NCBI RefSeq assembly: GCF_000014785.1
Contig: NC_008340.1
Location: 30,001 to 62,000, forward strand
Length of the DNA: 32,000 nucleotides
Source: Alkalilimnicola ehrlichii MLHE-1
GTDB taxonomy: Bacteria > Pseudomonadota > Gammaproteobacteria > Nitrococcales > Halorhodospiraceae
Direction of reading: 5' to 3'
Part shown: positions 7,301 through 25,017 of the stretch, in pieces
Layout of the letters: every line of letters starts with the position of its first letter
Numbering within the stretch: position 1 is the first letter of the stretch
Made by a program: the position numbers and the translations under genes
The notes under the pieces: generated by a model
Databases searched by the model: none
Seen by the model: only the letters and a program-made list of their open reading frames with translations
What the model was told of the DNA's origin: nothing

Positions 7301-8089
7301 TCAGAAAAAGGTGCCTTCCAGCGGACTGGAGGCACTGGCAAACCGCTTGCGCGGGATGCGCCCGGCCAGGTAGGCCTCGCGCCCTGCCTCGACCGCCTTG
7401 CGCATGGCGCTGGCCATCAGCACCGGTCTTTGGGCCCCGGCGATGGCGGTGTTCATCAGCACCCCGTCACAGCCCAGCTCCATGGCCTCGGAGGCATCGG
7501 AGGCGGTCCCCACGCCGGCATCCACCAACACCGGCACCGAGGCATTCTCGACGATGGTCAGGATGTTCCAGTGGTTCTGGATACCCAGCCCGGAGCCGAT
7601 GGGCGCCCCCAGGGGCATCACCGCGACACAACCGACCTCCTCCAGGCGCTTGGCGGTGATCGGGTCGTCGCTGGTGTAGACCATCACGTCAAAACCGTCC
7701 GCCACCAGCTGCTCCGCCGCCTCCAGGGTGGCGGGGATGTCCGGGTAGAGGGTCTTCTCGTCGCCGAGCACCTCCAGTTTGACCAGGTTGTGCCCGTCCA
7801 ACAGCTCCCGCGCCAAGCGGCAGGTGCGCACCGCGTCTTTGGCGGTGTAGCAACCGGCGGTGTTGGGCAGGAGGGTGTAGCGCTCGGGGGAGATGACGTC
7901 GAGCAGGTTGGGCTCGTCCGGGTTCTGGCCGATATTGGTGCGGCGGATGGCGACGGTGACGATCTCCGCACCGCTGACCTCGATGGCCTCGCGGGTCTCG
8001 TCCAGATCGCGATACTTGCCGGTACCCACCAGCAGACGGGACTGAAAGGTTCGGCCGGCAACGGTGAAGGTGTCCTGCGAGGCTTCCAT
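7301..8089 (-). CDS. thiG: Thiazole synthase
   Basis: [19 protein letters not shown]...[14 protein letters not shown] is typical ThiG. ATG at 8089 is preceded by AGGAG. The ORF-track start at 8125 is a TTG and less likely. Confidence 0.9.
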
Positions 8090-8146
8090 GGGCCAATCTG
8101 CTCCTGAATAGAGGGGCTGGAACAAGGGGTGCGATAACGCTGCGGG

Positions 8147-8368
8147 TCAGCCGCCGCCGATGGCCTGGACCACCTCGACGCGGTCGCCGGGTTGCAGGCG
8201 GTGCTGCTCAAAGCGGCTGCGCGGGACGATGTCCTCGTTGACCTCCAGGGCCAGTCGCCGGCCGCCCAACTGCATCTCCTCCAGCAACTCGGCGGCGGTG
8301 ATGCCGGTGCGGACCTCGCGGTCCTCTCCATTGACCCGGATGTGCATGGTATCGCTGTGCTCAGTCAT
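8147..8368 (-). CDS. thiS: Sulfur-carrier protein ThiS
   Basis: Small ubiquitin-like protein ending in GG (VVQAIGGG), directly upstream of thiG. The real start may be the internal MHIRVNGE (ATG at 8347). Confidence 0.85.
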   Translation of the reverse strand: MTEHSDTMHIRVNGEDREVRTGITAAELLEEMQLGGRRLALEVNEDIVPRSRFEQHRLQPGDRVEVVQAIGGG

Positions 8369-8589
8369 GGGCCCGATTGTACAACAGGTTTTTTGTTGGT
8401 TTCCGCGTGAAGGCTTTCGGCTTGCCCGAGGGGGTAGGCGATCAACCTGCGACGGCGGTAGCCGGAAGGAGGGAGGTGTCCATGATGGGGGAGTGCAACG
8501 AGGAACCCGACCAAACCAACCGGTTGGCGGGTAGCCGGGTTTCGACTACCTTCATTGAAACCCGCCCCGTAGGAGTGATGCCCACTTAG

Positions 8590-8739
8590 ATCGGGACGAC
8601 TGCCCTGCGACGTCCTGGATTGAGCCTGTGCCGGCTACGGCATCTACTGGCCGGAATTCGACGAAGACCTCAGTACGGAAGGTATGTTTCGGGGGCGCCA
8701 GCGCCTAGCAAGTCGTATATGGACTCCTCCCGCAAGTAG
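8590..8739 (+). pseudogene. Remnant of a DUF2442-family gene (C-terminal part only; in-frame stop and frameshift)
   Basis: The translation GYGIYWPEFDEDLSTEGMF matches the conserved DUF2442 C-terminal motif (G.GIHWP.LDEDLS.EGLL). A TGA at 8621-8623 lies just upstream. The expected tail (GAPAPSKS...) is reached only after a frameshift at the G5 run 8691-8695. No N-terminal half is present. Confidence 0.4.
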
Positions 8740-8794
8740 CAACGGCGGATGCACGGGCGACTTTGCTTAAGCGGATCTAAACGGGGAGAGAATA

Positions 8795-9163
8795 GTGATT
8801 GAAGGTATCGTTGCGATACTTGCGGGGTTGCTGCTGATTACACCCATCATTGGTAGGGGGTCGGCTGGGGCCAAGGTCGTTGGCAAGCTTACCCCTTTCG
8901 AGGCCGTGATCGGTGTTGTCGCTCTGATAGTCGGTGTGCTTAACGTTATGAGTGTCACGGGGCTGGTGCTAATTGTGGCTGGCCTCCTATTAGCGGCCAG
9001 CGCGCTTGCGAAGATCCCCGCCATTGGTAGTCACCTCGCGCGTGCAGGCAAGGCTCTCAAACCGTTCCGGGTCGTAATTGGTGTGGTTGTGTTGGTGATC
9101 GGCGTGTTGGTTTTGCTTGGGATCGTCGGCGGGGGCCCGCCGCCGGGTCTCCGCACCGGCTGA
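8795..9163 (+). CDS. Small hydrophobic membrane protein with an internal duplication
   Basis: GTG start preceded by GGGGAGAG. 122 aa, about 4 predicted TM helices. The segments KLTPFEAVIGVVALIVGVLNV and ALKPFRVVIGVVVLVIGVLVL are repeated. Local GC is lower than in the flanks. Confidence 0.5.
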   Translation: MIEGIVAILAGLLLITPIIGRGSAGAKVVGKLTPFEAVIGVVALIVGVLNVMSVTGLVLIVAGLLLAASALAKIPAIGSHLARAGKALKPFRVVIGVVVLVIGVLVLLGIVGGGPPPGLRTG

Positions 9164-9195
9164 TGCTGTCCGTGCGCCAACCCTCCCTGGTGTTC

Positions 9196-9785
9196 CGCTC
9201 CAATGCCTTGGAACATCTCGTGCAGGTCGACGGTGGAACGCTCGCCGATGCCAGCGAAGTTCTCGTCCAGCCAGCGTGTCGCGGTGTCGCGGCCCATGTC
9301 ACGCAGCTTGGTGAGAAACGCCCATTCGACGTTCATACACGACGAGGCGCTCAGCGGCTTCAGCTCCCGCCTGGTTTTCGATGATATGCACGCGCACCTA
9401 AGGGTGGTCGTCTGTCGAAAGCTTGCCCTGGCGGATCAAGCGATCGACGAAGTCTATCGAGCCAAGTTCCCTTAGCAGGCTGCCGTTGAAGCTGATCTCG
9501 TTCATCCGGTGCTCAATCTCCTGCGGCGTCCTTGGTGTGCCCTTGCGCTTGATTGGATTGATCTGGATCACCACGACATCGTCGGTGTCGGTCGCGCCAT
9601 GAAAGGGGAACAGAGACGGATTGCCCATGTAGCCACCATCCCAGTACGGCACACCATCGATCTCAATGGCCTGATATGGACAGCCGGCCGTCCTCGAGAA
9701 TGCGGTCCAGCACCGCCCAGGTGAACGCACCATGCGCGCCACCGCCCTGCAGGGCAAGATTCACGGCTTTCAGATTGGTTGTCAT
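9196..9785 (-). pseudogene. Patatin-like phospholipase pseudogene (internal deletion of the GxSxG region plus a frameshift)
   Basis: ATG at 9785 is preceded by AGGAG and gives MTTNLKAVNLALQGGGAHGAFTWAVLDRILEDGRLSI (oxyanion-hole GGG motif), then a stop. A different frame continues with YQAIEIDGVPYWDGGYMGNPSLFP (catalytic DGG motif) ...INPIKR...NEISFN. A third frame carries the DUF3734-like tail NVEWAFLTKLRDMGRDTATRWLDENFAGIGERSTVDL. The lower boundary is approximate. Confidence 0.65.
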
Positions 9786-9861
9786 CGGATTTTAGCTCCT
9801 AAACCAGAGCCCGAGTCTCGCATCATGACGCTTAAGCTACTGACTCTACGCCACAATAGGG

Positions 9862-9880
9862 CGACCCCAGCCTGGGGTCG
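9862..9880 (-). terminator. GC-rich hairpin, possible end of the minus-strand effector/immunity operon
   Basis: CGACCCCAG-C-CTGGGGTCG is a perfect 9-nt inverted repeat, 24 nt beyond the last minus-strand ORF stop. No clear U-tract follows, so an intrinsic-terminator call is weak. Confidence 0.25.
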
Positions 9881-9903
9881 GTACGCTCGCGAACATACCG
9901 AGA

Positions 9904-10152
9904 TCACACACGAATACAGCGCTCTTCCCGCTGCCAGTTCGGCATTGAGGCGTGGACTTCGGGCTGGGCAACTCGATGGCGATTTCCGAGCAGAAAGCCC
10001 AGGCCGGCAGCCGAACCCAACAGCGCCGGGGACGTCATCCGGTCATGGATTCGGTGGCGCAGCATGGCGCCCTGCGCGCCCATCGATCGCTGGCGCTCGG
10101 CGCCATTGATGCGTGCTGCCAGCGATTCGGAGTGGGGTGCGTTGCGGATCAT
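9904..10152 (-). CDS. Possible small single-TM protein (82 aa from the internal ATG); may be non-functional
   Basis: MIRNAPHSESLAARINGAERQRS...MTSPALLGSAAGLGFLLGN has one hydrophobic helix. The annotated 129-aa ORF (to 10293) starts inside the effector-derived 95-bp repeat and is therefore chimeric. Confidence 0.3.
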   Translation of the reverse strand: MIRNAPHSESLAARINGAERQRSMGAQGAMLRHRIHDRMTSPALLGSAAGLGFLLGNRHRVAQPEVHASMPNWQREERCIRV

Positions 10153-10230
10153 GATGACGTGTCCGTTTCGGGGGTCAGACTGCGCACGGTGGCGGGGAAC
10201 TGCAGATTTGGGCGTTGCTGGCGGATCGCC

Positions 10231-10325
10231 CAGCCACTCAGGAATATTGCCGTCGCCTGCATTGGCAACGTGAGGCGCCAGGTTCAACGACATCAGGCCT
10301 TCGATGGTTCGTGCGGAGAAGAGCG
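10231..10325. repeat. 95-bp copy (93/95 identical) of an internal segment of the effector gene
   Basis: I aligned cagccactcaggaatattgccgtcgcctgcattggcaa[c/t]gtgaggcgccaggttcaacgacatcaggccttcgatggttcgtgc[g/c]gagaagagcg by eye against 15702-15796. The flanks are unrelated. Confidence 0.9.
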
Positions 10326-11309
10326 ACGCTGGGTGTGGGGATCGAGGGTTTGCGGGGCGTCGGGGTGCAGGCCCTGGTCGCGCTCAATGTCGTAGAGTCG
10401 GGAGGTGGGGCCGTCGGCGCGGCAGCGTTCGCGCACGAGCGGGTGCCACTGGCTGCGGGCGGCGCGGCGCTGGGCCAACTGCCAGACAAAGTCGCGCAGG
10501 ACGAGGGCGGGCAGCATGACGGCCTGGAAGGCGTTGGTGAACCACATGCGGTCGCGGGTCATGATGCCCATGTCGACCAACTCCCGGTGGAGTTCGATGT
10601 CGATCTTGCCCGTGCGATTGCGCTGGGCGAAGCGTTTGCGCACCGCCTGGCGGGTGGATTCGGGGGTGTTTCGGCCCTGCTCGTCGAACCAGGGGCCGTT
10701 TTCCATGTAACAGCGTAGGTACTCCCAGAGCATGGCCTGGGTCTGGGCGGTGTGGCCCATGGGAAGGTTGAGATTGACGGCGATGACCTCGTCGGGCTGC
10801 TGGAAGCGCTGGAGGAGGATCTGCAGGGGGGTGAGCCGGTTGACGCCGGCATGGTGGGTGACCTGGCGGGTTTCCTGCAGCCATGCGACGGCCTCGTCCC
10901 AGGGGGTGTGGTAGAGCTTTTTGCCGTCCTGGAAGTAGACCTCGCGGGTGCGGCGATTGAAGCGCAGGGGCAGGGCCGCGGGCCAGAAGACCTCGAGCAG
11001 GAAGAAGACCAGGGTGACGCCGGCCATGGCTCCATTGACCTGCAAAGCGAATACCGCTCTCTCTCCCCCGTGGAAAAAGTTGGGTGACATCACTACTAGA
11101 CCCATCAGCGTTCCCCATCCCCAAAACCCGGTCCACAGGCCCCTTGAGCTTCCGGTGGTGATATCGAGGTAGTGCTCGGTCTGGTCCTGGACGTCGCCGG
11201 CCTGCATGGGCTGGGCGGCCGCGCGCCGGTCGGGGCGCAGGGTGATGACCTCGTCGGCGAGCCCGATATTGCGGGAGAGATCGGCGAAGAACCGGCGCAG
11301 GTGGTGCAT
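10293..11309 (-). CDS. Polytopic membrane protein, paralog of 11926-13257; candidate (orphan) T6SS immunity protein
   Basis: 338 aa. Shares PLRFNRRTREVYF, TPWDEAVAW and MLWEYLRCYMENGP with PIRLHRQRREVAF, VPWEDVIAV and AQWEYIRRFMEEGP of the 444-aa protein. Its ATG is 2 nt after the stop of the preceding ORF. Its last ~10 codons lie inside the 95-bp effector-derived repeat. Confidence 0.7.
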   Translation of the reverse strand: MHHLRRFFADLSRNIGLADEVITLRPDRRAAAQPMQAGDVQDQTEHYLDITTGSSRGLWTGFWGWGTLMGLVVMSPNFFHGGERAVFALQVNGAMAGVTLVFFLLEVFWPAALPLRFNRRTREVYFQDGKKLYHTPWDEAVAWLQETRQVTHHAGVNRLTPLQILLQRFQQPDEVIAVNLNLPMGHTAQTQAMLWEYLRCYMENGPWFDEQGRNTPESTRQAVRKRFAQRNRTGKIDIELHRELVDMGIMTRDRMWFTNAFQAVMLPALVLRDFVWQLAQRRAARSQWHPLVRERCRADGPTSRLYDIERDQGLHPDAPQTLDPHTQRRSSPHEPSKA

Positions 11310-11311
11310 GG

Positions 11312-11827
11312 CTAGTTGATCCGGATGGGAGGCAGGGTGAGATCGGGGAACGGGCGATAGTACAGGGTGCCGGAGAGGGAGCTCAGCCGGTCGCCGTCCC
11401 GGGTGTCGTGGTAGATGAGTCGGTAGACGGGGCCGTCGGGCGCCTCCGCCCCACCGATGTCGAGGTCGAGATCCTTTTCGGTGATGGTCCGGCTGCGTTC
11501 GTCATGCCGGACCAGCCCGGTGCGCCAGCGCTCGGTGGCCTCCAGAGTGAACATGCCCGGGAAGGGCGTGGCGCCGGGGAAGGTGACCAGCAGGACACGG
11601 TAGTGGTGGACATCGCCGGAGCGGGGGTTACGGGCCTGGCGGGCCTCCAGCCGGATGCGCGGCTCGTAGAGCAGCCGGTAGAGGTGGCCGAGTTCCTCGT
11701 CCAGGTCGCCGGCCCAGTCGGCCAGCCGCGGGAGTCGCCCGCGAACGCCGCGTAGGCCGTGCCACGCAGGACGCCATGGCCCGGGGTTGACCGCCCCATC
11801 GATCATCATCCATGAGCCTTGGTCCAT
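11312..11827 (-). CDS. 171-aa soluble protein of unknown function; possibly derived from the C-terminal domain of a displaced VasX-like effector
   Basis: ATG at 11827 is preceded by AAGGAG (the open frame extends to 11851). It is tightly coupled to the downstream membrane protein (TAG-CC-ATG). By-eye similarity to the last ~175 aa of the 1099-aa effector is described in the findings. Confidence 0.55.
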   Translation of the reverse strand: MDQGSWMMIDGAVNPGPWRPAWHGLRGVRGRLPRLADWAGDLDEELGHLYRLLYEPRIRLEARQARNPRSGDVHHYRVLLVTFPGATPFPGMFTLEATERWRTGLVRHDERSRTITEKDLDLDIGGAEAPDGPVYRLIYHDTRDGDRLSSLSGTLYYRPFPDLTLPPIRIN

Positions 11828-11925
11828 GGCCTTACTCCTTTGCCGCCGCATACCTTTTACAGGCCAGCTCTGGGCTGGGCAGCCTGGAGCAGCGTAACGG
11901 TTGGTGTCTGGCTCATGGCGCCGGC

Positions 11926-13257
11926 TCAGGCCGCGCTGGCCGCAAATGGCAGTGTGCGATAAGCCGTACCTGGGGAGGGCTCCACCTCGACCCCAAAGCG
12001 TTTCTCGATATTGCCCATCTCGATGAACTTCTCGCCGCGCTGGTAGGCCTGCCGCAGCTTCTCGCCGAGTTCAGTGAGTTCGCGCGAAGGTCGGGCCCAC
12101 TGGTCCCGGGGAAGGGGCCTGGACCATCCCGCCAGCCAGCCCTTGGGCACCGCCTTGGGCAGCACATGCTTCATGCGGTACTCGGTGTACCAGTGGGCGA
12201 AGCGTGCATGATTCCACCACTGCTCGCGCCGAAAGCGCCGCCAGCGGGCCTTGTCGTGGGTGCGTTCGCACTCGGCCTTTTCCCGGGCCACGTAGGCGTC
12301 GTACCACTCGAGGCCCCACTCCCGGGCGGAAGAGGTGATGGCCTCGGGCCCCTCCTCCATGAAGCGGCGGATGTACTCCCACTGGGCCAGCGCGCCCGGG
12401 AGGCCGCCGACCCCGACGATGATGCCGGCCCCGGGCAGGGTATAGCCGGGTCGTTCCGGATCGGGCGGCATCAGAGCGAAGTTCCAGCCGAAGCCGGTGA
12501 CGGCCCCGGCGCTGAGGCTGGGGTTGAACCCGCAGACCGCGATCACGTCCTCCCAGGGCACCAACACGGTCTGGCGCTGTTGGCCGACGAGCTTGCGGCA
12601 GAAGTCATGGAAATAGGGATAGAGAGGCAGGAAGGCCAAGGAGGCGATGTGGATCAGCAGTACCTTGAGAGGGAAGACCGTATCTGGATTCGCCATCCAT
12701 TCGAACACGTCCACAAAAACCATAATTCCGGTCAGCGAGGCAATGACACCCGAAGAAGCCATCAACCACATGTTGGTTGGGTCGGGCAGCCAGAAGCGCC
12801 GCCCGGGGGCATCCACGACGAAGGCCACCTCCCGGCGTTGGCGATGGAGGCGGATGGGGGGGATGCGTCTCAGTACGACATCGGGATAGAGAATGCCGGC
12901 AAAAAGAGGAAACAATATAACCGCGTAAATGCTTCCCAGCCCCCCTGCAACCAACTCCAAGGGCAGTGAGCCCTTGTACACCGCACTCAGGGAGAAAAGG
13001 AGCCCCAGTCCCGAAATTAGCGTCAGGCCGACACTAAAGATATGCCCCGTAATCAGGACGCTATCGAGGCTGGCAGCCTGGCGCAGGTCCATCGTGACCT
13101 CGTCGCGGCGAACGTCGATGTGGGCCACGTCCACGCCATGTTCGCTGTCGGTGGGCAGCGGCAGAGGGCTGAGACAGTACTGCTCGCCGCCGGCGCGGCT
13201 TTCCCGTTCGCCGGCGCGCATAGGGGGTAACGTATCGTCGATGGTTGATCTGGGCAT
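11926..13257 (-). CDS. Polytopic membrane protein immediately downstream of the effector; candidate cognate immunity protein
   Basis: ATG at 13257 (MPRSTIDD...) is 20 nt after the effector stop. The ORF-track start at 13368 would overlap the effector by 90 nt. Several TM helices are predicted. It is a paralog of 10293-11309 with an extra TM-hairpin insertion. Its position corresponds to tsiV2 after vasX in V. cholerae. Confidence 0.7.
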   Translation of the reverse strand: MPRSTIDDTLPPMRAGERESRAGGEQYCLSPLPLPTDSEHGVDVAHIDVRRDEVTMDLRQAASLDSVLITGHIFSVGLTLISGLGLLFSLSAVYKGSLPLELVAGGLGSIYAVILFPLFAGILYPDVVLRRIPPIRLHRQRREVAFVVDAPGRRFWLPDPTNMWLMASSGVIASLTGIMVFVDVFEWMANPDTVFPLKVLLIHIASLAFLPLYPYFHDFCRKLVGQQRQTVLVPWEDVIAVCGFNPSLSAGAVTGFGWNFALMPPDPERPGYTLPGAGIIVGVGGLPGALAQWEYIRRFMEEGPEAITSSAREWGLEWYDAYVAREKAECERTHDKARWRRFRREQWWNHARFAHWYTEYRMKHVLPKAVPKGWLAGWSRPLPRDQWARPSRELTELGEKLRQAYQRGEKFIEMGNIEKRFGVEVEPSPGTAYRTLPFAASAA

Positions 13258-13277
13258 GGAGGTCCTGTCCCTTGTTG

Positions 13278-16200
13278 TCACGGCCAGGGCGTCAGGGGCA
13301 TGTCCGGCCAGTTGCCCACTTGGTACCGCGTGAGGAAACGATCGCCGAGGGCGGAGATCTCCCTCCACTCATCGGAGAGCGATGTGCCGCGGCGATGCAA
13401 CTGGAAGACCCGGGTGGTGGATGCTTCGGGGCCCTTCGTGCGGATGACGAGGCGGAACTCGTGGCATTCGGCCAATGTTTCGGGATCGAAATGGTAGTGC
13501 AGGGCATAGCTCGAGCCCTGGTTTTCGAGCTCGGCATGTTCGAGAAAGTCTCGGGTCATTTCCTTGAGGCGAGGGGTGACGCCCCAGAGGCCCAGCGCGA
13601 GGTTTTCCGCATTGGGGGCGTCAAGCCCGGGCAAGCCAATGCGTATGGCGAGGTCGGTGCCTGCCGGCCCGGGCCCCGGGCCGCCATGGGGCTCGGCCTG
13701 CCCCTGCCGTTCCACCGTGAGATCGGTATCGCCAAGTCGGGCCAGTTCCCGCTCGTGGGCCTCGCGATCCCAGCCCTGATCTTCTCGCCCCCAGTGACTG
13801 CGCTGGCACCAGCGCTGCACAGGGCTCAACGAGAAGCGATTGGCCAGCACCTCGCCGATGATCAGCAGGGCGGTGCCAACCGCCACCACCCAGCCGGCGG
13901 GGCCGGCGAATTTCAGCAGCAGCAGTCGCCAGGCGACTGCGGGCTTGCCCAGCATCCTGCCAAGCGCGCTCATGCCGCCGATTAAGAAGCCACCACCGGC
14001 GACTCCGGCCGCACCTGTAAAGGCAACCTGTAAGGCCAGTCGCTCCGCCTGGGTTTCTGATCCCTGCATTCGTTTGTACTGCTTGTAGGTTTCTAAGAGA
14101 CCTGCAAAGCCACCCAGTAGGGCCACGGCCCCCATCGCCCCATTGGCAACCCTTGCCCAGCGCTCCAGTTGCGCGGGGCTTCCGGCGGCGGCGCGGGTCT
14201 CGGCCAAGGCCACCTGCTGAAAGCCCCGCCCCTGGTAGAGGTTGCGATGGCGGGCGTCGATGATCATTTCTCGTATTGCCATGATGCTCGCTGCCGCCCC
14301 TGTCGCGTGAGAGCCCGTCGCGAAGGCGTGCTCCATGAGGCGTTCTTCGCCCCAGGCATCAAGCGTATTGCGCAGGGCCACGCCGGTCATGATCATACCC
14401 AGCATCGACAGGCTCCCATTAACCAGCACCCCCAGGCTCCGACTCGCCGACAGCTCGCCCTGTTCGTCGCGCACCAGGGTGTTCAAGGTGTCGTTCAGGG
14501 TCGCGGCTGGTTGACGGGCAACGGCCCGGTCGGCGGCACGCTCGGCCAGGGCGGCACGGGTGGCGGCCAGGCTCAGGCCGCCGACCTGGACGGCGTGGCC
14601 ATTGGCCTTGTCGACGGGGAAGCTGTGTTCGGCCAGGGCGTCGAATGCCTCGCCCAGCAGGCGCCTGTGCCGGTTGATGTCGGCCTGGCTTTCGCGGATT
14701 TTGCGGGCATTGAACCGGTCGGCGGCCCGGCGATGCGCCTGGCTGGTGCCGCGCCTGGACGCCCGTGCCAACTCGACCTGGCGCTCCTGGTAGAGCTGCT
14801 CGAGCCTGCGCTCAAGGGTTGCCAGGTTGGCCACGGCCGAGTCCGCCTGGTCCAGTGCTTGCTGGATGCGGCCCAGTACGGAGCGGTCGGGGATGGCCCA
14901 GCCGAGCTCGAGCAGCCCCAGACGTTCGGCAAACATCAGCCGTTGCCCATCGGGCAAGCGCGAAGCCAGGGTAGTGATGCGCTGCCCCAGGTCGACATCC
15001 TGTACGTCATCGAGCAACGTCCCGAGCACCGCCTGCCCCAGCAGCTTCTCCTTGATTTGCACTTCGCCCGCGATGGCGGTTCGGGCTTCGTCGGAGAGGC
15101 CCTCGACGCTGCGAAAGCGCAGCCCGGTCTGATGTTCAACCTCGCCCCGCCACTGCTGGTAGCGGCTGAGTGCGCCCTGGGCGCCCATCAGTGCGGACGC
15201 CTGGGTGAGCGCTTTCTGGAGGCCAGTGTTTTGGGAAAGGAATCCCTCCACGAAGGACGCGGTGGGGACGTAATGCATCAGGTGTGCCGGTACCGGGTCG
15301 TCGCCGGCGTAGTAGCTCGACAGGAAGTCCTCCTGCCCGCAGGCCAGCAGGGTCTCGACGGCCTGCTTTTCCAGCAGGCAGGTCAGCAGGATGTGATGCT
15401 CCTCTTCGCGGTCGAGCAGCAGGGCCTGGGTGTGCCAGGTGGGCAGTATGGCGGCCAGGTCGGCCCCGATACGGTGATACTCGCTCTGCCACTGCGCCTG
15501 CATCGGGGTGGCATAGGCCAGGAAGTCTTCCATCGCCTGCCGGCGGATCACGTCGACGATGCCGTTGGGCGCCAGCGCCCCGCCAATGAAGCCCGGGTGG
15601 CCGCCTGAACGGGCAGTGACCTGCTCTATGGCTTCGCGATGCTGCGAATAGAGCTCGGCGAGCGACTCCAGGTCGTTACGCTCGGCATAACTGGCTTCGC
15701 TCAGCCACTCAGGAATATTGCCGTCGCCTGCATTGGCAATGTGAGGCGCCAGGTTCAACGACATCAGGCCTTCGATGGTTCGTGCCGAGAAGAGCGCCAC
15801 CGCGTTCTCGTCGACCCACTGGCCCTGTTGTTCCGCCAGGCAGGCCCACGCCTGGGCGAGGTCCTTGATACGTCCGGCGATATCGTCCACTACCAGGCAG
15901 GCGCTGTCTTGCTGAAAGCCCCCCTGGATAGCCGCCTTGATCTCGGCGGCGCGCGCACGCTGCCACTCGGCGTGTTCGCCTTCCGCGTCGCACCAGGCGT
16001 AGCTGCCCGGGTCGAGCGGGTCGCCGTCCTGCTCGGTCGGGGCGCTGGGGGTCGCGCGGTGTTCGCCATGGTCGTCCGCCAGGACGTCGGCCAGGGCATC
16101 GGGATCGAGCAGGTGAGCGGTACCCGCCCCCGGACAGTAGGCGCCAACGTTGACCCGCGTCATCACCTGATCGCGGAAGGCAGGTTTAAGCAGCATCGAT

Positions 16201-16577
16201 TGGTGCACGGCCGTCAGCGCCAAGGGACTGAACAGCACCTGGATGCTGCCCTCGCGCTCGACGATGATCGCATCGCCGCTGCCATCGGGTTTGACCTCGA
16301 AGACCTGCAGCTCATCGGGCGTTGAGCTGTGTACCAGGTAGAGCCAGCCTTCCCGTACCGGCCGTACGCCACAGCGACGGAAACTGCCGTCATGAACGGG
16401 CCGGAAGCCCGGCGTGCCCGAGGCCCGATCCGCCTCGGGCGCCTCGACCAGGGCATACCGCACCGGGACCAGCTGCAGCTCACCGCGCGTAAGAGGGCAG
16501 AGCCCCTGCTCTTGGCCCGGGTCGTTATCGTTCCGGCTCTCCGCGACGCGGTTGGCGGCTTCCATGTCGGTGCTCAT
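13278..16577 (-). CDS. T6SS effector, VasX / BTH_I2691-like (N-terminal loading region, coiled-coil middle, C-terminal cluster of TM helices, about 175-aa terminal domain)
   Basis: 1099 aa, directly after vgrG and the DUF4123 adaptor with a 4-nt ATGA overlap. The N-terminus GLCPLTRGELQLVPVRYALVE resembles the VasX N-terminal region. Glycine-rich hydrophobic helices near the C-terminus include LSMLGMIMTGVAL, GAVALLGGFAGLL, FTGAAGVAGGGFLIGGMSALG and WVVAVGTALLIIGEVL. Confidence 0.8.
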   Translation of the reverse strand: MSTDMEAANRVAESRNDNDPGQEQGLCPLTRGELQLVPVRYALVEAPEADRASGTPGFRPVHDGSFRRCGVRPVREGWLYLVHSSTPDELQVFEVKPDGSGDAIIVEREGSIQVLFSPLALTAVHQSMLLKPAFRDQVMTRVNVGAYCPGAGTAHLLDPDALADVLADDHGEHRATPSAPTEQDGDPLDPGSYAWCDAEGEHAEWQRARAAEIKAAIQGGFQQDSACLVVDDIAGRIKDLAQAWACLAEQQGQWVDENAVALFSARTIEGLMSLNLAPHIANAGDGNIPEWLSEASYAERNDLESLAELYSQHREAIEQVTARSGGHPGFIGGALAPNGIVDVIRRQAMEDFLAYATPMQAQWQSEYHRIGADLAAILPTWHTQALLLDREEEHHILLTCLLEKQAVETLLACGQEDFLSSYYAGDDPVPAHLMHYVPTASFVEGFLSQNTGLQKALTQASALMGAQGALSRYQQWRGEVEHQTGLRFRSVEGLSDEARTAIAGEVQIKEKLLGQAVLGTLLDDVQDVDLGQRITTLASRLPDGQRLMFAERLGLLELGWAIPDRSVLGRIQQALDQADSAVANLATLERRLEQLYQERQVELARASRRGTSQAHRRAADRFNARKIRESQADINRHRRLLGEAFDALAEHSFPVDKANGHAVQVGGLSLAATRAALAERAADRAVARQPAATLNDTLNTLVRDEQGELSASRSLGVLVNGSLSMLGMIMTGVALRNTLDAWGEERLMEHAFATGSHATGAAASIMAIREMIIDARHRNLYQGRGFQQVALAETRAAAGSPAQLERWARVANGAMGAVALLGGFAGLLETYKQYKRMQGSETQAERLALQVAFTGAAGVAGGGFLIGGMSALGRMLGKPAVAWRLLLLKFAGPAGWVVAVGTALLIIGEVLANRFSLSPVQRWCQRSHWGREDQGWDREAHERELARLGDTDLTVERQGQAEPHGGPGPGPAGTDLAIRIGLPGLDAPNAENLALGLWGVTPRLKEMTRDFLEHAELENQGSSYALHYHFDPETLAECHEFRLVIRTKGPEASTTRVFQLHRRGTSLSDEWREISALGDRFLTRYQVGNWPDMPLTPWP
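15702..15796. repeat. Master copy, inside the effector CDS, of the 95-bp repeat found at 10231-10325
   Basis: Encodes effector residues ~261-292 (LFSARTIEGLMSLNLAPHIANAGDGNIPEWL). 93/95 identical to the distal copy. Confidence 0.9.
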
Positions 16578-17473
16578 GCCTTGCTCTCCCTGCTCGCTAG
16601 CCGCCGGGCCTCGGTGGCGGCGGCCTTGAGTCGCTCCATGGGGGTGCCGCTGGTCTGGGTGACGTGCCGAGCCAGATCCGGCATGCGCTGTTCATCCAGG
16701 GCCGCCGGACCATAGGCCCCCAGGATGTTGGCCATGTAGTAGTGGGCGCGCCGACCGGTGAAGCCCAGCTCCCGTGTGGTATCGATGACCCGCCGAGCGG
16801 CCATGCCAGCCGTCCCGCATTCGCTGATCAGCGGGCCGTGGGCGAAGAATGCCTGGAGGTGCTGTGCCAGCTCTCCGGCGAAACGCTGCCAGGCGATACG
16901 ACTCAGCGATTCGAGATGTGCTGGCTGCAGCCTGAAGCGCTTCCGGTGCCGTACCGGCTCACCCTGGGTGTTGGTCAGATGGCGCCAGGTGATGCCGTCG
17001 TCTTCGGCTATCGGCAACCATAGCGCGCCGATCACCCCCAGGAGCGGGCTTTGCGAGGGCTCCGGCTCCGCCTCGAGCAGGCAGTGCACGACTTGGGCCG
17101 AGGCCAGCCGTAGTATCTTTTCGCCTTCCAGGGGGTGCTCGACAAACAACAGCCAGCGCAGATGCGCCGCGAGTTCCTCCAGCGAGGCATCGCTGGCCAT
17201 GAGCCAGCCCCAGCTCTCGACCGCGCCCTGTTCCAGGAACCTCTCCCAGACCAGGCTGCCCGGCTCCAGAGCCACCAGGCATGGCGAGAGCTTTCGACAC
17301 GCTTCCAGCGGCGTGTGCAGGTAGAGCGGCTCATAGACGGGTGTATCGAGGTGCTCGTAGAGCCAACGTTCCAGAGGTTCGAGCGCTATGCCGTCGAGCA
17401 GCAGGTAGTGCTTCCCGTCACCGAGGGCAGCCGCCGACGGTGGCGCGCTATTGGGGAGTGCCCCCGTGGTCAT
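16574..17473 (-). CDS. DUF4123 T6SS effector adaptor/chaperone (VasW/Tap/Tec-like)
   Basis: [14 protein letters not shown]...[12 protein letters not shown]...[23 protein letters not shown] fits the DUF4123 pattern. Start and stop overlap the vgrG stop and the effector start by 4 nt each. Confidence 0.8.
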
Positions 17474-18725
17474 GCCGATCCCTCGTCATCGCCAGTGGGT
17501 GTGCAGGGCTGTGTCAAAGCCATCGCCTGGCGCAGGGCTGCCTCCTGCCGAATCGGCTCAATACGCGGCACGTTAGGGGCCGGCTCCACCTCCCTTTGCG
17601 ATGCCAACTCCGCCTCCCGCGGCACCTCCGGTGCGAGGGCCGCCTGGCCCGAGCCCGATCCAGGGCTGCCCCCGGAGTTCATGCGGATGCCGGGGCCGCT
17701 GAGGGTGATGCCCGAGGGATCGACCTTGATGAAACTGCCGCCCGCCTGGAGGGTGATCTCGGCACCGGCGTCGATGACCGCCTTGTGCCCCGACTTGACG
17801 TGCAGTTCCCGGCCGCATTCGCTCAGCCAGGCCTCACCGGCTTTGAGATGCAGGGTGCCCTCCACGCTGAGATGCTGATCCCCACCGGTGCGCTCGCGCC
17901 GCTCGCCCTGCACGGTGAGGTGCTCGTCGCCGTGGATCTCCGCGAGCCGGTCGCCGTGGACGCCCAGGTGGCTGTGGCGGCCGATGGTCTCGGAGCGGTC
18001 GTTGCGGGTGTGCAGGTCGAGATCGCGCTGGGCGTGCAGGTGGATGCGCTCGGCCTCGCGGGCATCCTCGAAGTGCAGTTCGTTGTAGCCCTCACCGTCC
18101 TGGCTGCGGCTGCGCAGCACGCTGCGGGTCTTGTGCGCGGGCAGCGGATAGGGCGGGGTGTTGTGGCCATCGTAGACCCGGCCGGTGATCACCGGCTGAT
18201 CCGGGTCGCCGGCCAGGAAGTCGACGATCACCGCATGGCCCACCCGGGGCAGGAACAGCCCGCCGTAGCCGGGCCCGGCCCAGGGCTGGGCGACGCGCAG
18301 CCAGGCGCTGGCGTGCTCGTCATCGGCGGCGTAGCGGTCCCAGGGGAAACGGACCTTGACCCGGCCGTGCTCATCGCAATGGATCGCCTCCCCCTCGGGG
18401 CCCACCACCCGGGCGATCTGCGGGCCCTCCATCCGCGGGCCGGCGTCCGGGTCGTGGGGCGGGCGCCGGTGCGGCCGCGCTGGAACTCGGTGACGATGCC
18501 GTGGACCCGGCGGGTGACCGCACCCCCCTGATGGATCACCAGCGCCAGGCCCTGCTCAAGCCAGTCGTCGGGGGCGATATCGGGCGAGGGGTGGACCAGG
18601 TCCAGGGTCAGCGTGAAGGGCCGGGAGAGGTGCTCATCCAGCAAGAACCCGGTGACCCGGGGCAGGTCGGCCTCCGCCGCGCCGGGGCGCGAGAGGGCGA
18701 GGTACAGTCCGTTGTCCGTAGGCAT
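17470..18725 (-). pseudogene. vgrG: vgrG with a large internal deletion (most of the gp27-like domain missing) and a frameshift
   Basis: The N-terminal ORF (from 18725) gives about 85 VgrG-like residues ending [16 protein letters not shown] different frame then starts with [32 protein letters not shown], a motif that normally sits near residue 390, and continues through the gp5-like repeats to the [10 protein letters not shown] tail. The locus spans only 1256 nt, versus about 2 kb for an intact vgrG. Confidence 0.75.
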
Positions 18726-18760
18726 GGCCAGTCCGTTGGCATGGGAATCCGATTCGGAGC

Positions 18761-18789
18761 AGCCTAAGAGGGGGCCCCGGACCTGTCAA
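18761..18789 (-). promoter_or_regulatory. Candidate sigma70 promoter for the vgrG-effector operon
   Basis: On the minus strand: TTGACA (18789-18784), 17-nt spacer, TAGGCT (18766-18761), about 35 nt upstream of the vgrG ATG. Motif match only. Confidence 0.3.
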
Positions 18790-18817
18790 GCAAACCACCG
18801 GGGCAGCGTGTGGGGGG

Positions 18818-18829
18818 GGCTTGCAAGCC
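18818..18829. promoter_or_regulatory. Perfect 12-bp palindrome GGCTTGCAAGCC abutting a G8 tract in the divergent T6SS intergenic region
   Basis: Read directly from the sequence. G8 spans 18812-18819. Possible regulator binding site. Confidence 0.25.
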
Positions 18830-18938
18830 GGAATCGGTCCGTGCTAATCCTAAAACGTAGCCAGGAAGGCTACCCGATCCAGTCAACGCGGTTTGCTGTG
18901 CTGCAGTGGGCCGCGCCGAATCAAGGAAGAGTAAGTCA

Positions 18939-18952
18939 GACAATGGATTGTC
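18939..18952. promoter_or_regulatory. Inverted repeat GACAAT-GG-ATTGTC, possible operator upstream of tssB
   Basis: Read directly from the sequence, 127 nt upstream of the tssB ATG. Confidence 0.25.
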
Positions 18953-19078
18953 TCCCTATTCATGCCACCGGTATACCCGGTATCCCCGTTCAGCCGCACC
19001 CCATGAGGGTTGTGGATCGCCCTTGCGTGCGTGCTGTCCCCCGCTCCGTTCTGCGAGCCCACCACAGGGAGTGAAACG

Positions 19079-19588
19079 ATGTCCGACCAAGGAACGGTCG
19101 CGCCCAGAGAGCGCATCAATATCCGTTATGTGCCCGCCACCGGAGACCAGGCGTCCGAGGCCGAGCTGCCACTGAAGCTGCTGGTGGTTGGCGACTTCAA
19201 GGGCGGTTCCGAGGAGACGCCGATCGAGGAGAGAACGGCGGTCTCCGTGGACAAGAACAACTTTCACTCCGTGCTCGCCGAGTCGGGCCTGGGCCTGGAG
19301 GCCTGCGTGCCCAACCGGCTGCAGGCCGGTGACGAGGTCAGCGATCTGCCCGTCCGCCTCTCCTTCAAGGCGCTGGATGACTTTGCCCCCGACCGGTTGG
19401 CACAGCAGGTGCCGGAACTCCGCAAGCTGGTGGCCCTGCGTGAGGCCCTCGTGGCCCTGAAAGGGCCGCTGGGCAATATCCCGGCGTTCCGCAGGCAGTT
19501 GCAGGACCTGCTGGAGAGCGAGTCGGTCCGGGAACGGTTGCTGGAGGAACTGAAGCGCGTCACGTCCCCTGAGGACGACACCGAGTGA
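19079..19588 (+). CDS. tssB: T6SS contractile sheath small subunit TssB (VipA)
   Basis: MSDQGTVAPRERINIRYVPATGDQASEAELPLKLLVVGDFKG is canonical TssB. ATG at 19079 is preceded by GGGAG. The ORF-track start at 19010 is too far upstream. Confidence 0.9.
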   Translation: MSDQGTVAPRERINIRYVPATGDQASEAELPLKLLVVGDFKGGSEETPIEERTAVSVDKNNFHSVLAESGLGLEACVPNRLQAGDEVSDLPVRLSFKALDDFAPDRLAQQVPELRKLVALREALVALKGPLGNIPAFRRQLQDLLESESVRERLLEELKRVTSPEDDTE

Positions 19589-24306: not shown

Positions 24307-25017
24307 GTGTCCCTGCAAGCACCCACGGTGACCTTGGTGGTCATCAATCCCGAGATCATGGACGGCCGGGCCGCTGGCGCCCACGTCTTCGACACCCGGG
24401 GGGGCTGCCTGGGCAGCGACCCCGCCCTCAGTGACTGGTGCCTGCCGGATGCCGGGGGCCGTGTCCATGGGGTGCACGCTGCCCTGCGCTACGAGCAGGG
24501 GCGGTTCATCCTGGATGATGAATCCGGTGACACCCGCATCAATGGTGTCAGCCGGCCCCTGGGCCGCGGGCAGCGGGTGCTGCTCTCGGAGGGGGATGTG
24601 CTGGCGGTGGGCAACTACCGGCTTCGGGTGCTGTTCGGGGGCGCCGGCGACGCGTGCCCCGCGGCCGATCTGGCCGCCCTTGCCGGAGAACCAGAGGCGG
24701 TCATGACCAGCGAACGTCCGCCTTTGATGGCGGAGCGGGCGGACGCGGGGAGCGACCCCCTGGCGGCCCTGGGGGCCCCTTCGGTCGCCACCCACACGGT
24801 GGCCGACCCGCTGCGCGCCCTGGATGCCGCCACGACCTTCCCGCAGGAAGAGCGGCCCCTTTACGGGCCGGAGGTGCCGGCCGGCGATCAACACGCCATG
24901 ATGATGCCGTCCCGGCCCAGATACGGGCAGGATCGGCCCCGTTGCCCCCAGGCGGCCGAGGCGGCCATTGAGGCCGGGTTGCAGGCCGCGCGGCGCGAGC
25001 AGGAGGAGGGGGTATGA
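24307..25017 (+). CDS. fha: FHA-domain T6SS-associated protein (Fha/TagH-like, short form)
   Basis: The N-terminal FHA core is GRFILDDESGDTRINGVSRPLGRGQRVLLSEGDVLAVGNYRLRV. Same position as fha (VCA0112) in V. cholerae. Confidence 0.75.
   Translation: MSLQAPTVTLVVINPEIMDGRAAGAHVFDTRGGCLGSDPALSDWCLPDAGGRVHGVHAALRYEQGRFILDDESGDTRINGVSRPLGRGQRVLLSEGDVLAVGNYRLRVLFGGAGDACPAADLAALAGEPEAVMTSERPPLMAERADAGSDPLAALGAPSVATHTVADPLRALDAATTFPQEERPLYGPEVPAGDQHAMMMPSRPRYGQDRPRCPQAAEAAIEAGLQAARREQEEGV

Follow-up and report, generated by a model that had tools for sequence, protein, structure and literature searches.

Predicted cognate and orphan immunity proteins of the DUF6708-like superfamily beside a VasX-family effector gene in Alkalilimnicola ehrlichii MLHE-1

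Against which toxins, if any, would two divergent membrane proteins protect when both are encoded behind one and the same effector gene? The question is raised by a locus of Alkalilimnicola ehrlichii MLHE-1 contained in the 32,000-nucleotide (nt) stretch of DNA analyzed here (contig NC_008340.1 of RefSeq assembly GCF_000014785.1, positions 30,001 to 62,000 of the forward strand; hereafter the window, to which all positions refer). There, a gene coding for 443 amino acids (aa) and another coding for 338 aa lie downstream of the gene for a 1099-aa, predicted pore-forming effector belonging to a type VI secretion system (T6SS). Family membership, gene order, the recurrence of the same neighbors in other genomes and the remnants of effector genes that flank the smaller gene lead us to consider it probable that the 443-aa protein is the cognate immunity of the 1099-aa effector, the 338-aa protein being instead an orphan immunity that the displacement of another effector left behind.

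An annotation of the window made from its letters alone (the initial annotation) had placed both open reading frames (ORFs) correctly on the minus strand, at 10293-11309 (338 aa) and 11926-13257, and the 20 nt that it counted between the effector stop codon and the larger gene are exact. The 444 aa that it attributed to the latter include the stop codon, the frame coding for 443 aa plus stop. The arrangement requires a further correction, as the 443- and 338-aa genes are not adjacent: between them lies a 179-aa ORF (11312-11851) which is an effector remnant. The minus-strand operon runs in the order vgrG remnant, DUF4123 adaptor, 1099-aa effector, 443-aa gene, 179-aa ORF and 338-aa gene, and comprises the following features.

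17470-18725, minus strand: vgrG remnant, whose N-terminal gp27-like fragment is not in the same frame as its gp5/C-terminal part
16574-17473, minus strand: DUF4123 (Tap/VasW-type) adaptor, 299 aa (PF13503, 86.9 bits)
13278-16577, minus strand: VasX-family effector, 1099 aa, predicted pore-forming (PF20249 VasX_N)
15697-15805, minus strand: segment of the effector gene (aa ~258-294) repeated downstream (direct repeat D1)
11926-13257, minus strand: 443-aa membrane protein with four transmembrane (TM) segments, DUF6708-like but of a divergent clade; predicted to be the cognate immunity
11312-11851, minus strand: 179-aa ORF, remnant of a displaced VasX_N effector gene, from its 3' end (BLASTP)
10293-11309, minus strand: 338-aa DUF6708 membrane protein (PF20455); predicted orphan immunity
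10226-10334, minus strand: effector-gene vestige of ~100 nt (aa ~260-295 of the 1099-type; repeat D1, alignment and phmmer map)

The two membrane proteins and their family

The initial annotation could assign neither protein to a named family, but for the smaller one Pfam provides the name. The 338-aa protein matches PF20455 (DUF6708) at 44.4 bits (cutoff 27; E 2.2e-11) over profile positions 5-196 of 200, and family alignments indicate that every family-invariant residue has been retained. Hydropathy places the hairpin of canonical DUF6708 proteins at about 57-118 and detects a weaker third hydrophobic segment in most members. The AlphaFold2 (AF2) model of the 338-aa protein (predicted local distance difference test, pLDDT, 79.8; predicted template modeling score, pTM, 0.75) consists of a TM hairpin, an eight-strand beta region, a helix bearing the WEY motif and a long helix at 252-286. 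No mechanistic lead came from this fold, the Foldseek search of the model against the PDB giving no match at E<=0.001, and PDB sequences searched with a profile of the DUF6708 alignment gave nothing at E<=1.

The 443-aa protein belongs to a more divergent clade. Its ATG, 20 nt past the effector TGA and preceded by the purine-rich AAGGGACAGGA, specifies a methionine (M1) that is invariant across 17 homologues, and for this reason it is taken as the true start of the gene, in preference to the upstream GTG at 13368. Hydropathy predicts TM segments at about 66-90, 100-128, 163-187 and 192-215. The last two constitute the extra hairpin that the initial annotation had recognized in the larger protein, and which both hydropathy (about 163-215) and AF2 secondary structure (163-223) support; from the AF2 model, with a pLDDT of 56, the order of secondary-structure elements alone was taken. 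The resulting layout includes a TM hairpin, the basic motif PIRLHRQRREV, a beta-rich region split by the second hairpin, and the WEYIRRFMEEGP helix, with the insertion lying within the beta region, after the basic motif and ahead of the PWED motif, i.e., between the first and the second of three motifs that the initial annotation had described as shared by the two proteins. Against PF20455 the 443-aa protein reaches 16.4-16.7 bits for a gathering threshold of 27, with only the WEYIRRFMEEGP stretch matching. Matches to the same family with E<=0.01 were obtained for 14 of the 17 members of its clade, the best of them at 2e-5; a few members carry a precomputed Pfam DUF6708 tag. In NCBIfam, neither of the two membrane proteins matched any family.

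Are they nevertheless homologous, as was proposed when they were first described as a paralogous pair? Pairwise BLASTP is marginal, with two collinear high-scoring segment pairs at E 0.003 and 0.008, whereas the comparison of the 443- and 338-type family alignments by hhalign is significant (probability 89%, E 2e-6, 51-154 versus 43-133). Furthermore, the hidden Markov model (HMM) of the 338-type matches 16 of the 17 443-type proteins in two collinear pieces, at profile positions 43-127 and 194-208, which contain the PIRxxRxxREV and WEYxRxxMExGP motifs, the first and third of those singled out by the initial annotation. Searching with the 443-aa protein by phmmer in a database of 5.8 billion sequences retrieves Pfam-tagged Pseudomonas DUF6708 proteins at E 3.5e-12 and 4.6e-11, and a 443-type profile finds 131 relatives among 1.84 billion cluster representatives. 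Most of these are 340-390 aa long and match about 12-150 and 228-412, skipping the inserted hairpin; when ten such relatives were compared with Pfam, two passed PF20455 (P0225, 29.9 bits; P0232, 36.1 bits), four remained below threshold and four had no match. The common architecture consists of an N-terminal TM hairpin, a basic P-I/L-R-x-N/H-R-x-x-R-E motif, a beta region with PW(D/E), and a WEY(L/I)RxxMExGP helix. Judged by these profile comparisons, the homology of the 443- and 338-aa proteins is genuine though remote, and the former has its place in a DUF6708-like superfamily of which the Pfam model appears to cover only a part.

Both membrane proteins have counterparts of 100% identity in the databases, from A. 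ehrlichii MLHE-1. Relatives of the 443-aa protein from Halomonas and Thioalkalivibrio are 74-87% identical to it. A. ehrlichii MLHE-1 itself encodes a second 443-type protein (P0002, ACN2MM_04850), 85% identical to that of the window, which implies a second, putative VasX-type effector-immunity locus in the genome.

Effector linkage and effector remnants

The linkage of these genes to effectors was surveyed in one genome per GTDB species, loci being mapped with the window proteins and the family HMMs. Genes of the 443-type were found in 36 loci, distributed among Halomonas, Vreelandella, Billgrantia, Franzmannia and one Thioalkalivibrio. In 11 of them (L001, L002, L007, L009, L012, L013, L022, L023, L032, L034 and L035) the 443-type gene comes just after the end of a full-length 1099-type effector, which itself has DUF4123 and VgrG upstream. 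Elsewhere among the 36 loci, what stands ahead of the 443-type gene is no more than the C-terminal 36-500 residues of a 1099-type effector (L004, L005, L008, L018, L020 and L028, as well as second copies in L001, L022 and L023), and most of these stub-preceded genes sit behind another VasX_N effector subtype that brings DUF6708-like genes of its own. DUF6708-like genes commonly form arrays of two to six, several copies being frameshifted. Both the immunity position that the initial annotation had attributed to the 443-aa gene and the linkage of the family to VasX_N effectors that it had proposed to survey are borne out by the 11 intact pairs and by the stub-preceded copies. Across the intact pairs, the identities of effector and immunity protein to the window pair are strongly correlated (r = 0.98), a value that fits co-inheritance or co-diversification alike.

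A separate observation concerns the integrity of the 443-type genes, which in many Halomonadaceae arrays are broken into two frames, and this in comparable places, around residues 70-150 (L006, L016, L018, L020, L021, L022, L023, L025, L027, L028, L031 and L035). This suggests either that orphan copies are frequently pseudogenized or that assembly or homopolymer errors recur.

Canonical DUF6708 genes accompany other effectors. In Halomonas sp. SpR8 (L037), VgrG, DUF4123 and a VasX_N protein of 868 aa, encoded at 7391-9997 of that locus, are followed by three DUF6708 genes; in Metapseudomonas otitidis (L040), the order is VgrG, DUF4123, a VasX_N protein of 957 aa and three DUF6708-like genes; and a Pseudomonas contig presents DUF4123, a VasX_N protein of 1155 aa and then DUF6708. 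It is to the Halomonas DUF6708 proteins encoded directly after the 868-aa VasX_N effector that the 338-aa protein of the window is 54-57% identical. Between 1099-type and 868/957-type effectors, no BLASTP similarity was found at E<=1e-3. Each immunity subtype is thus genomically tied to one VasX_N effector subtype, 1099 with 443, and 868/957 with ~330.

Canonical genes can also be found as orphans. In Marinobacter sediminicola (L042), an orphan DUF6708 gene comes after a 104-aa ORF that corresponds to a C-terminal stub of an 868-type effector (E 4e-7), and in Billgrantia tianxiuensis another one lies behind a Tle1-like/DUF3304 module. In the surroundings of the former (L042, 1-11134), TPR_27/Sel1-like and TM2-domain genes occur repeatedly, interspersed with small ORFs, and the region resembles a multi-family orphan immunity island.

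In the window, it is the 179-aa ORF that gives the 338-aa gene its history. By BLASTP, this ORF aligns with aa 731-866 of the 868-aa effector of L037 (55% identity, E 9e-46), its homologous part being aa 44-179 (about 11315-11722), and with the C-terminus of the 957-aa effector of L040 (35% identity, E 4e-13). It has no match in Pfam or NCBIfam, and it is not present in any of the 36 loci with 443-type genes. On these alignments, the 179-aa ORF is the C-terminal stub, ~136 codons long, of another and shorter VasX_N effector, of the 868/957-aa type; no other 868-type effector match was found in the span searched, window 8001-19000. The possibility that the ORF is a third immunity or accessory gene was considered and ruled out on account of its lack of any TM segment and of its match to an effector C-terminus. 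The start codon (ATG) of the 338-aa gene lies 2 nt past the stop codon of the 179-aa ORF, a junction that is as tight in L037. Since it is preceded by the remnant of a VasX_N effector different from the resident one, the 338-aa gene reads as an orphan immunity, and its relatives follow an intact effector elsewhere; the orphan status proposed in the initial annotation has in this way gained a candidate effector type.

A second trace is found at the other end of the same gene. Direct repeat D1 relates 15697-15805, inside the 1099-aa effector gene, to 10226-10334 over 109 nt with 94% identity (~97% in a ~100-nt core with sharp edges), and its downstream copy, in another frame, extends over the final 14 codons of the 338-aa gene. 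That copy is a scar of a 1099-type effector gene, derived from an internal piece. The conserved block QWxxLVRERxRxDGPTxRLxD(L/I)E of the 338-aa protein is intact, the scar replacing only the variable C-terminal tail. In Halomonas sp. C05BenzN, an internal 1099-type effector fragment (aa 549-614; L013, 9206-9475) was likewise observed downstream of the effector-immunity pair, so that internal as well as C-terminal effector scars recur in such loci.

Proposed mechanism, genomic context and rival explanations

How would these proteins work? The 1099-aa effector contains an N-terminal VasX_N/MIX region (PF20249, 81.2 bits), reaches 93.7 bits with NCBIfam BTH_I2691_fam, under the cutoff of 150, and presents hydrophobic helices at about 715-915 according to hydropathy. 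We propose that the 443-aa protein, once expressed, would bind the incoming 1099-aa toxin at or in the cytoplasmic membrane, and that this binding would block the insertion or the opening of the C-terminal hydrophobic helices of the toxin, the specificity being set by an immunity subtype that would co-diversify with its effector subtype. In turn, an 868-type effector would have been displaced by recombination, its last ~136 codons staying directly upstream of its immunity gene, and ~100 nt of a 1099-type effector gene form an additional scar downstream of the 338-aa gene. The retained 338-aa protein, acting likewise, would guard against neighbors still firing the displaced 868-type toxin.

The site of the encounter is suggested by charge. 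Directly after the second TM segment (TM2), an invariant basic cluster counts 5-6 K/R in the 443- and 338-aa proteins and their close relatives, and 2-4 in distant DUF6708 proteins; from this cluster, the positive-inside rule predicts that the conserved beta/alpha domain is cytoplasmic. Such a location would favor recognition within the bilayer, in the manner of the immunity proteins of pore-forming colicins, and not the periplasmic capture modeled for Pti2, the immunity protein discussed below. A more elaborate version of the proposal, possible but rather improbable, is that the 443 clade represents a distinct, unannotated DUF6708-like branch whose cytoplasm-facing domain stops the toxin within the bilayer or from its inner face, the extra hairpin constituting the specificity element for the 1099-aa subtype.

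The genomic context bears on whether the resident effector can be delivered at all. In the vgrG remnant, Pfam recognizes Phage_GPD on 18228-18725 at positions 2-61 only, and Phage_base_V and Gp5_trimer_C on 17470-18432. With the 691-aa VgrG of L037 as reference, tblastn aligns residues 11-93 in one frame (-1) and residues 332-691 in another (-3); the window vgrG is without about residues 94-331 of a normal ~690-aa VgrG, its gp27-like domain being mostly deleted. As the local vgrG is internally deleted, the 1099-aa effector may not be fired from its own locus, and it may need another VgrG or be undeliverable from here. The DUF4123 adaptor has been kept upstream of the effector in related loci.

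The effector operon is divergent from a T6SS core cluster that occupies the plus strand from 19010 and includes tssB, tssC, tssE, tssF, tssG, tssJ, tssK and tssL, together with a sigma-54 activator, vasI and tssA. Between tssG and tssJ lies an ORF of 236 aa (24307-25017, plus strand) with no Pfam match. Promoter and terminator scans over 8300-19100 gave counts at the level of shuffled sequence, uninformative on co-transcription. Directly downstream of the immunity array, at 9020-9788 on the minus strand, fragments of a patatin-like phospholipase gene are found in different frames and with stops: the GGGAHG motif of the N-terminus (~9788), a block with the DGG motif in the ORF 9398-9757 and a C-terminal block in the ORF 9031-9336. 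This region, in which no Pfam match was obtained at E<=1e-3, looks like a degraded gene. It is overlapped on the opposite strand by a putative gene, a very hydrophobic 122-aa ORF (MIEGIVAILAGLLLITPIIG..., 8795-9163, plus strand) that has no Pfam match.

Several points weigh against a cognate and an orphan immunity. By the Pfam criterion the 443-aa protein is not a member of PF20455, though profile comparisons make it a homologue, and its AF2 model is poor. The conserved domain is predicted to be cytoplasmic, yet toxins of the VasX family act from the periplasm, which makes any proposed site of contact tentative. The correlation of effector and immunity identities could be explained by co-inheritance alone. 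Given the deleted vgrG, immunity could be the sole selected function of the locus, or the whole locus could be decaying. Moreover, in the literature searched no protection assay was found for a protein named DUF6708, and the immunity assignment of the DUF6708 protein Tsi3a in Stenotrophomonas rhizophila is, in the available part of the report, positional and accompanied by proteomic detection (PMC13340143).

Decay deserves the closest attention, since it would turn the 338-aa gene, and perhaps the whole locus, into a relic made of recombination debris instead of a selected orphan immunity. A vgrG that is internally deleted and frameshifted, an effector stub upstream, a ~100-nt scar that overwrites the last 14 codons of the 338-aa gene, a fragmented patatin-like gene downstream and the frameshifts of many 443-type genes in Halomonas arrays are all in keeping with it. 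Nevertheless, an ORF of 338 codons has remained intact in a genome of 67% GC and has kept the full Pfam domain and all the family-invariant residues, the scar is confined to the variable C-terminal tail, and the ATG is coupled, 2 nt after the stop codon of the stub ORF; we therefore hold the relic to be rather unlikely.

A different objection is that linkage alone cannot tell a helper from an antidote. DUF6708-like proteins could be accessory factors of VasX-type effectors, either membrane chaperones or loading or activation partners, and the predicted cytoplasmic domain would suit contact with the effector before export. What speaks for antidotes is the behavior of the orphans, which persist and multiply into arrays after the effector has been lost or reduced to a stub, as is expected of antidotes and not of helpers; furthermore, the adaptor role is already taken by DUF4123, and characterized VasX-family toxins have a membrane immunity protein encoded at exactly this position, so that an accessory role seems very improbable. 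Duplication does occur in the family, as the homogeneous tandem DUF6708 triplets of L037 and L040 attest, and tandem duplication followed by divergence within this operon would make the 443- and 338-aa genes local paralogues. As the origin of the present pair we reject it as extremely unlikely: the similarity between the two window proteins is only marginal, each has much closer relatives in other genera (74-87% for the 443-type, 54-57% for the 338-type), and a stub of a foreign effector type stands between the genes, which argues for separate acquisition with different effector modules. Of the paralogous pair described in the initial annotation, the homology remains and the local duplication does not.

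Comparison with known systems

Taken as a cognate and an orphan immunity, the two genes reveal no new kind of system: a DUF6708 immunity has already been proposed, and displacement arrays are known from Vibrio cholerae, so that the window is another instance of known phenomena. For the same reason, the pairing cannot be called undescribed, as it was in the initial annotation. What is new is the unannotated 443-aa clade, a DUF6708 relative with an inserted hairpin, specific to one effector subtype, as well as the recognition of the 179-aa ORF and of the ~100-nt repeat as effector scars, and a subtype pairing that holds across genera. The so-called hypothetical 443-aa membrane proteins of Halomonadaceae and Ectothiorhodospiraceae are now linked to DUF6708 and to a specific VasX-type subtype, the matched subtypes (1099/443 and 868-957/~330) being material for studying how membrane immunity discriminates among pore-forming T6SS toxins. 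In addition, the locus offers a clean example at the sequence level, outside Vibrio, of the displacement route to orphan immunity, with both scars still readable.

The closest precedent is that of S. rhizophila CFBP13503, in which the DUF6708 protein Tsi3a was proposed as the immunity of the MIX/BTH_I2691 pore-forming effector Tse3 (PMC13340143; bioRxiv 10.1101/2023.07.21.549874), and where Tsi3a is followed by 12 homologues in a 13-gene poly-immunity array within a 14-kb region (PMC13340143). Tsi3a is of the same Pfam family as the 338-aa protein, and the two operons share the succession of vgrG, DUF4123 adaptor, VasX-like effector and DUF6708, as well as the tendency to form immunity arrays; the immunity roles are alike also in that both are predicted. 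Unlike the array described there, that of the window is heterogeneous, combining a divergent 443-aa hairpin subtype with one canonical member, and it contains explicit effector remnants.

In the T6SS of V. cholerae, orphan immunity arrays have been explained by sequential effector displacement, in which effector 3' ends are shifted (Kirchberger et al. 2017, PMC5361080). The window presents the same arrangement, that is, a resident effector-immunity pair followed at its 3' side by an immunity gene with relatives in intact pairs elsewhere: the 338-aa gene lies 3' of the resident pair and is homologous to the immunity genes of intact pairs such as that of L037, and shifted 3' ends of old effectors remain. 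The gene pool differs, being that of Ectothiorhodospiraceae and Halomonadaceae; the resident and orphan immunities of the window would both serve subtypes of one effector superfamily; and an extra internal effector scar lies downstream of the orphan.

As for the mode of action, VasX-family toxins attack from the periplasmic side: their C-terminal helices enter the inner membrane, and the membrane potential is dissipated. Tki5 co-purifies with Tke5 from membranes and prevents depolarization (PMC13133200). Pti2 protects against Ptx2, and the modeled toxin contact is a beta-sheet involved in periplasmic capture, whereas the beta region of DUF6708 proteins is predicted to be cytoplasmic from its charge bias. 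Among the 120 matches listed, of 410 obtained with the DUF6708 profile, none was from P. putida KT2440 or P. aeruginosa PA14 by name. Like the predicted cognate immunity of the window, the experimentally validated immunity proteins TsiV2 (for VasX), Tki5 (for Tke5) and Pti2 (for Ptx2) are inner-membrane proteins encoded directly downstream of a DUF4123-dependent MIX/VasX_N pore-forming effector.

A more distant parallel is given by the immunity proteins of pore-forming colicins (Cai/Cei-type), small polytopic inner-membrane proteins which neutralize an incoming pore-former inside the membrane, through helix-helix recognition of narrow subtype specificity. In contrast to these, DUF6708 proteins add a sizeable soluble beta/alpha domain to their TM helices.

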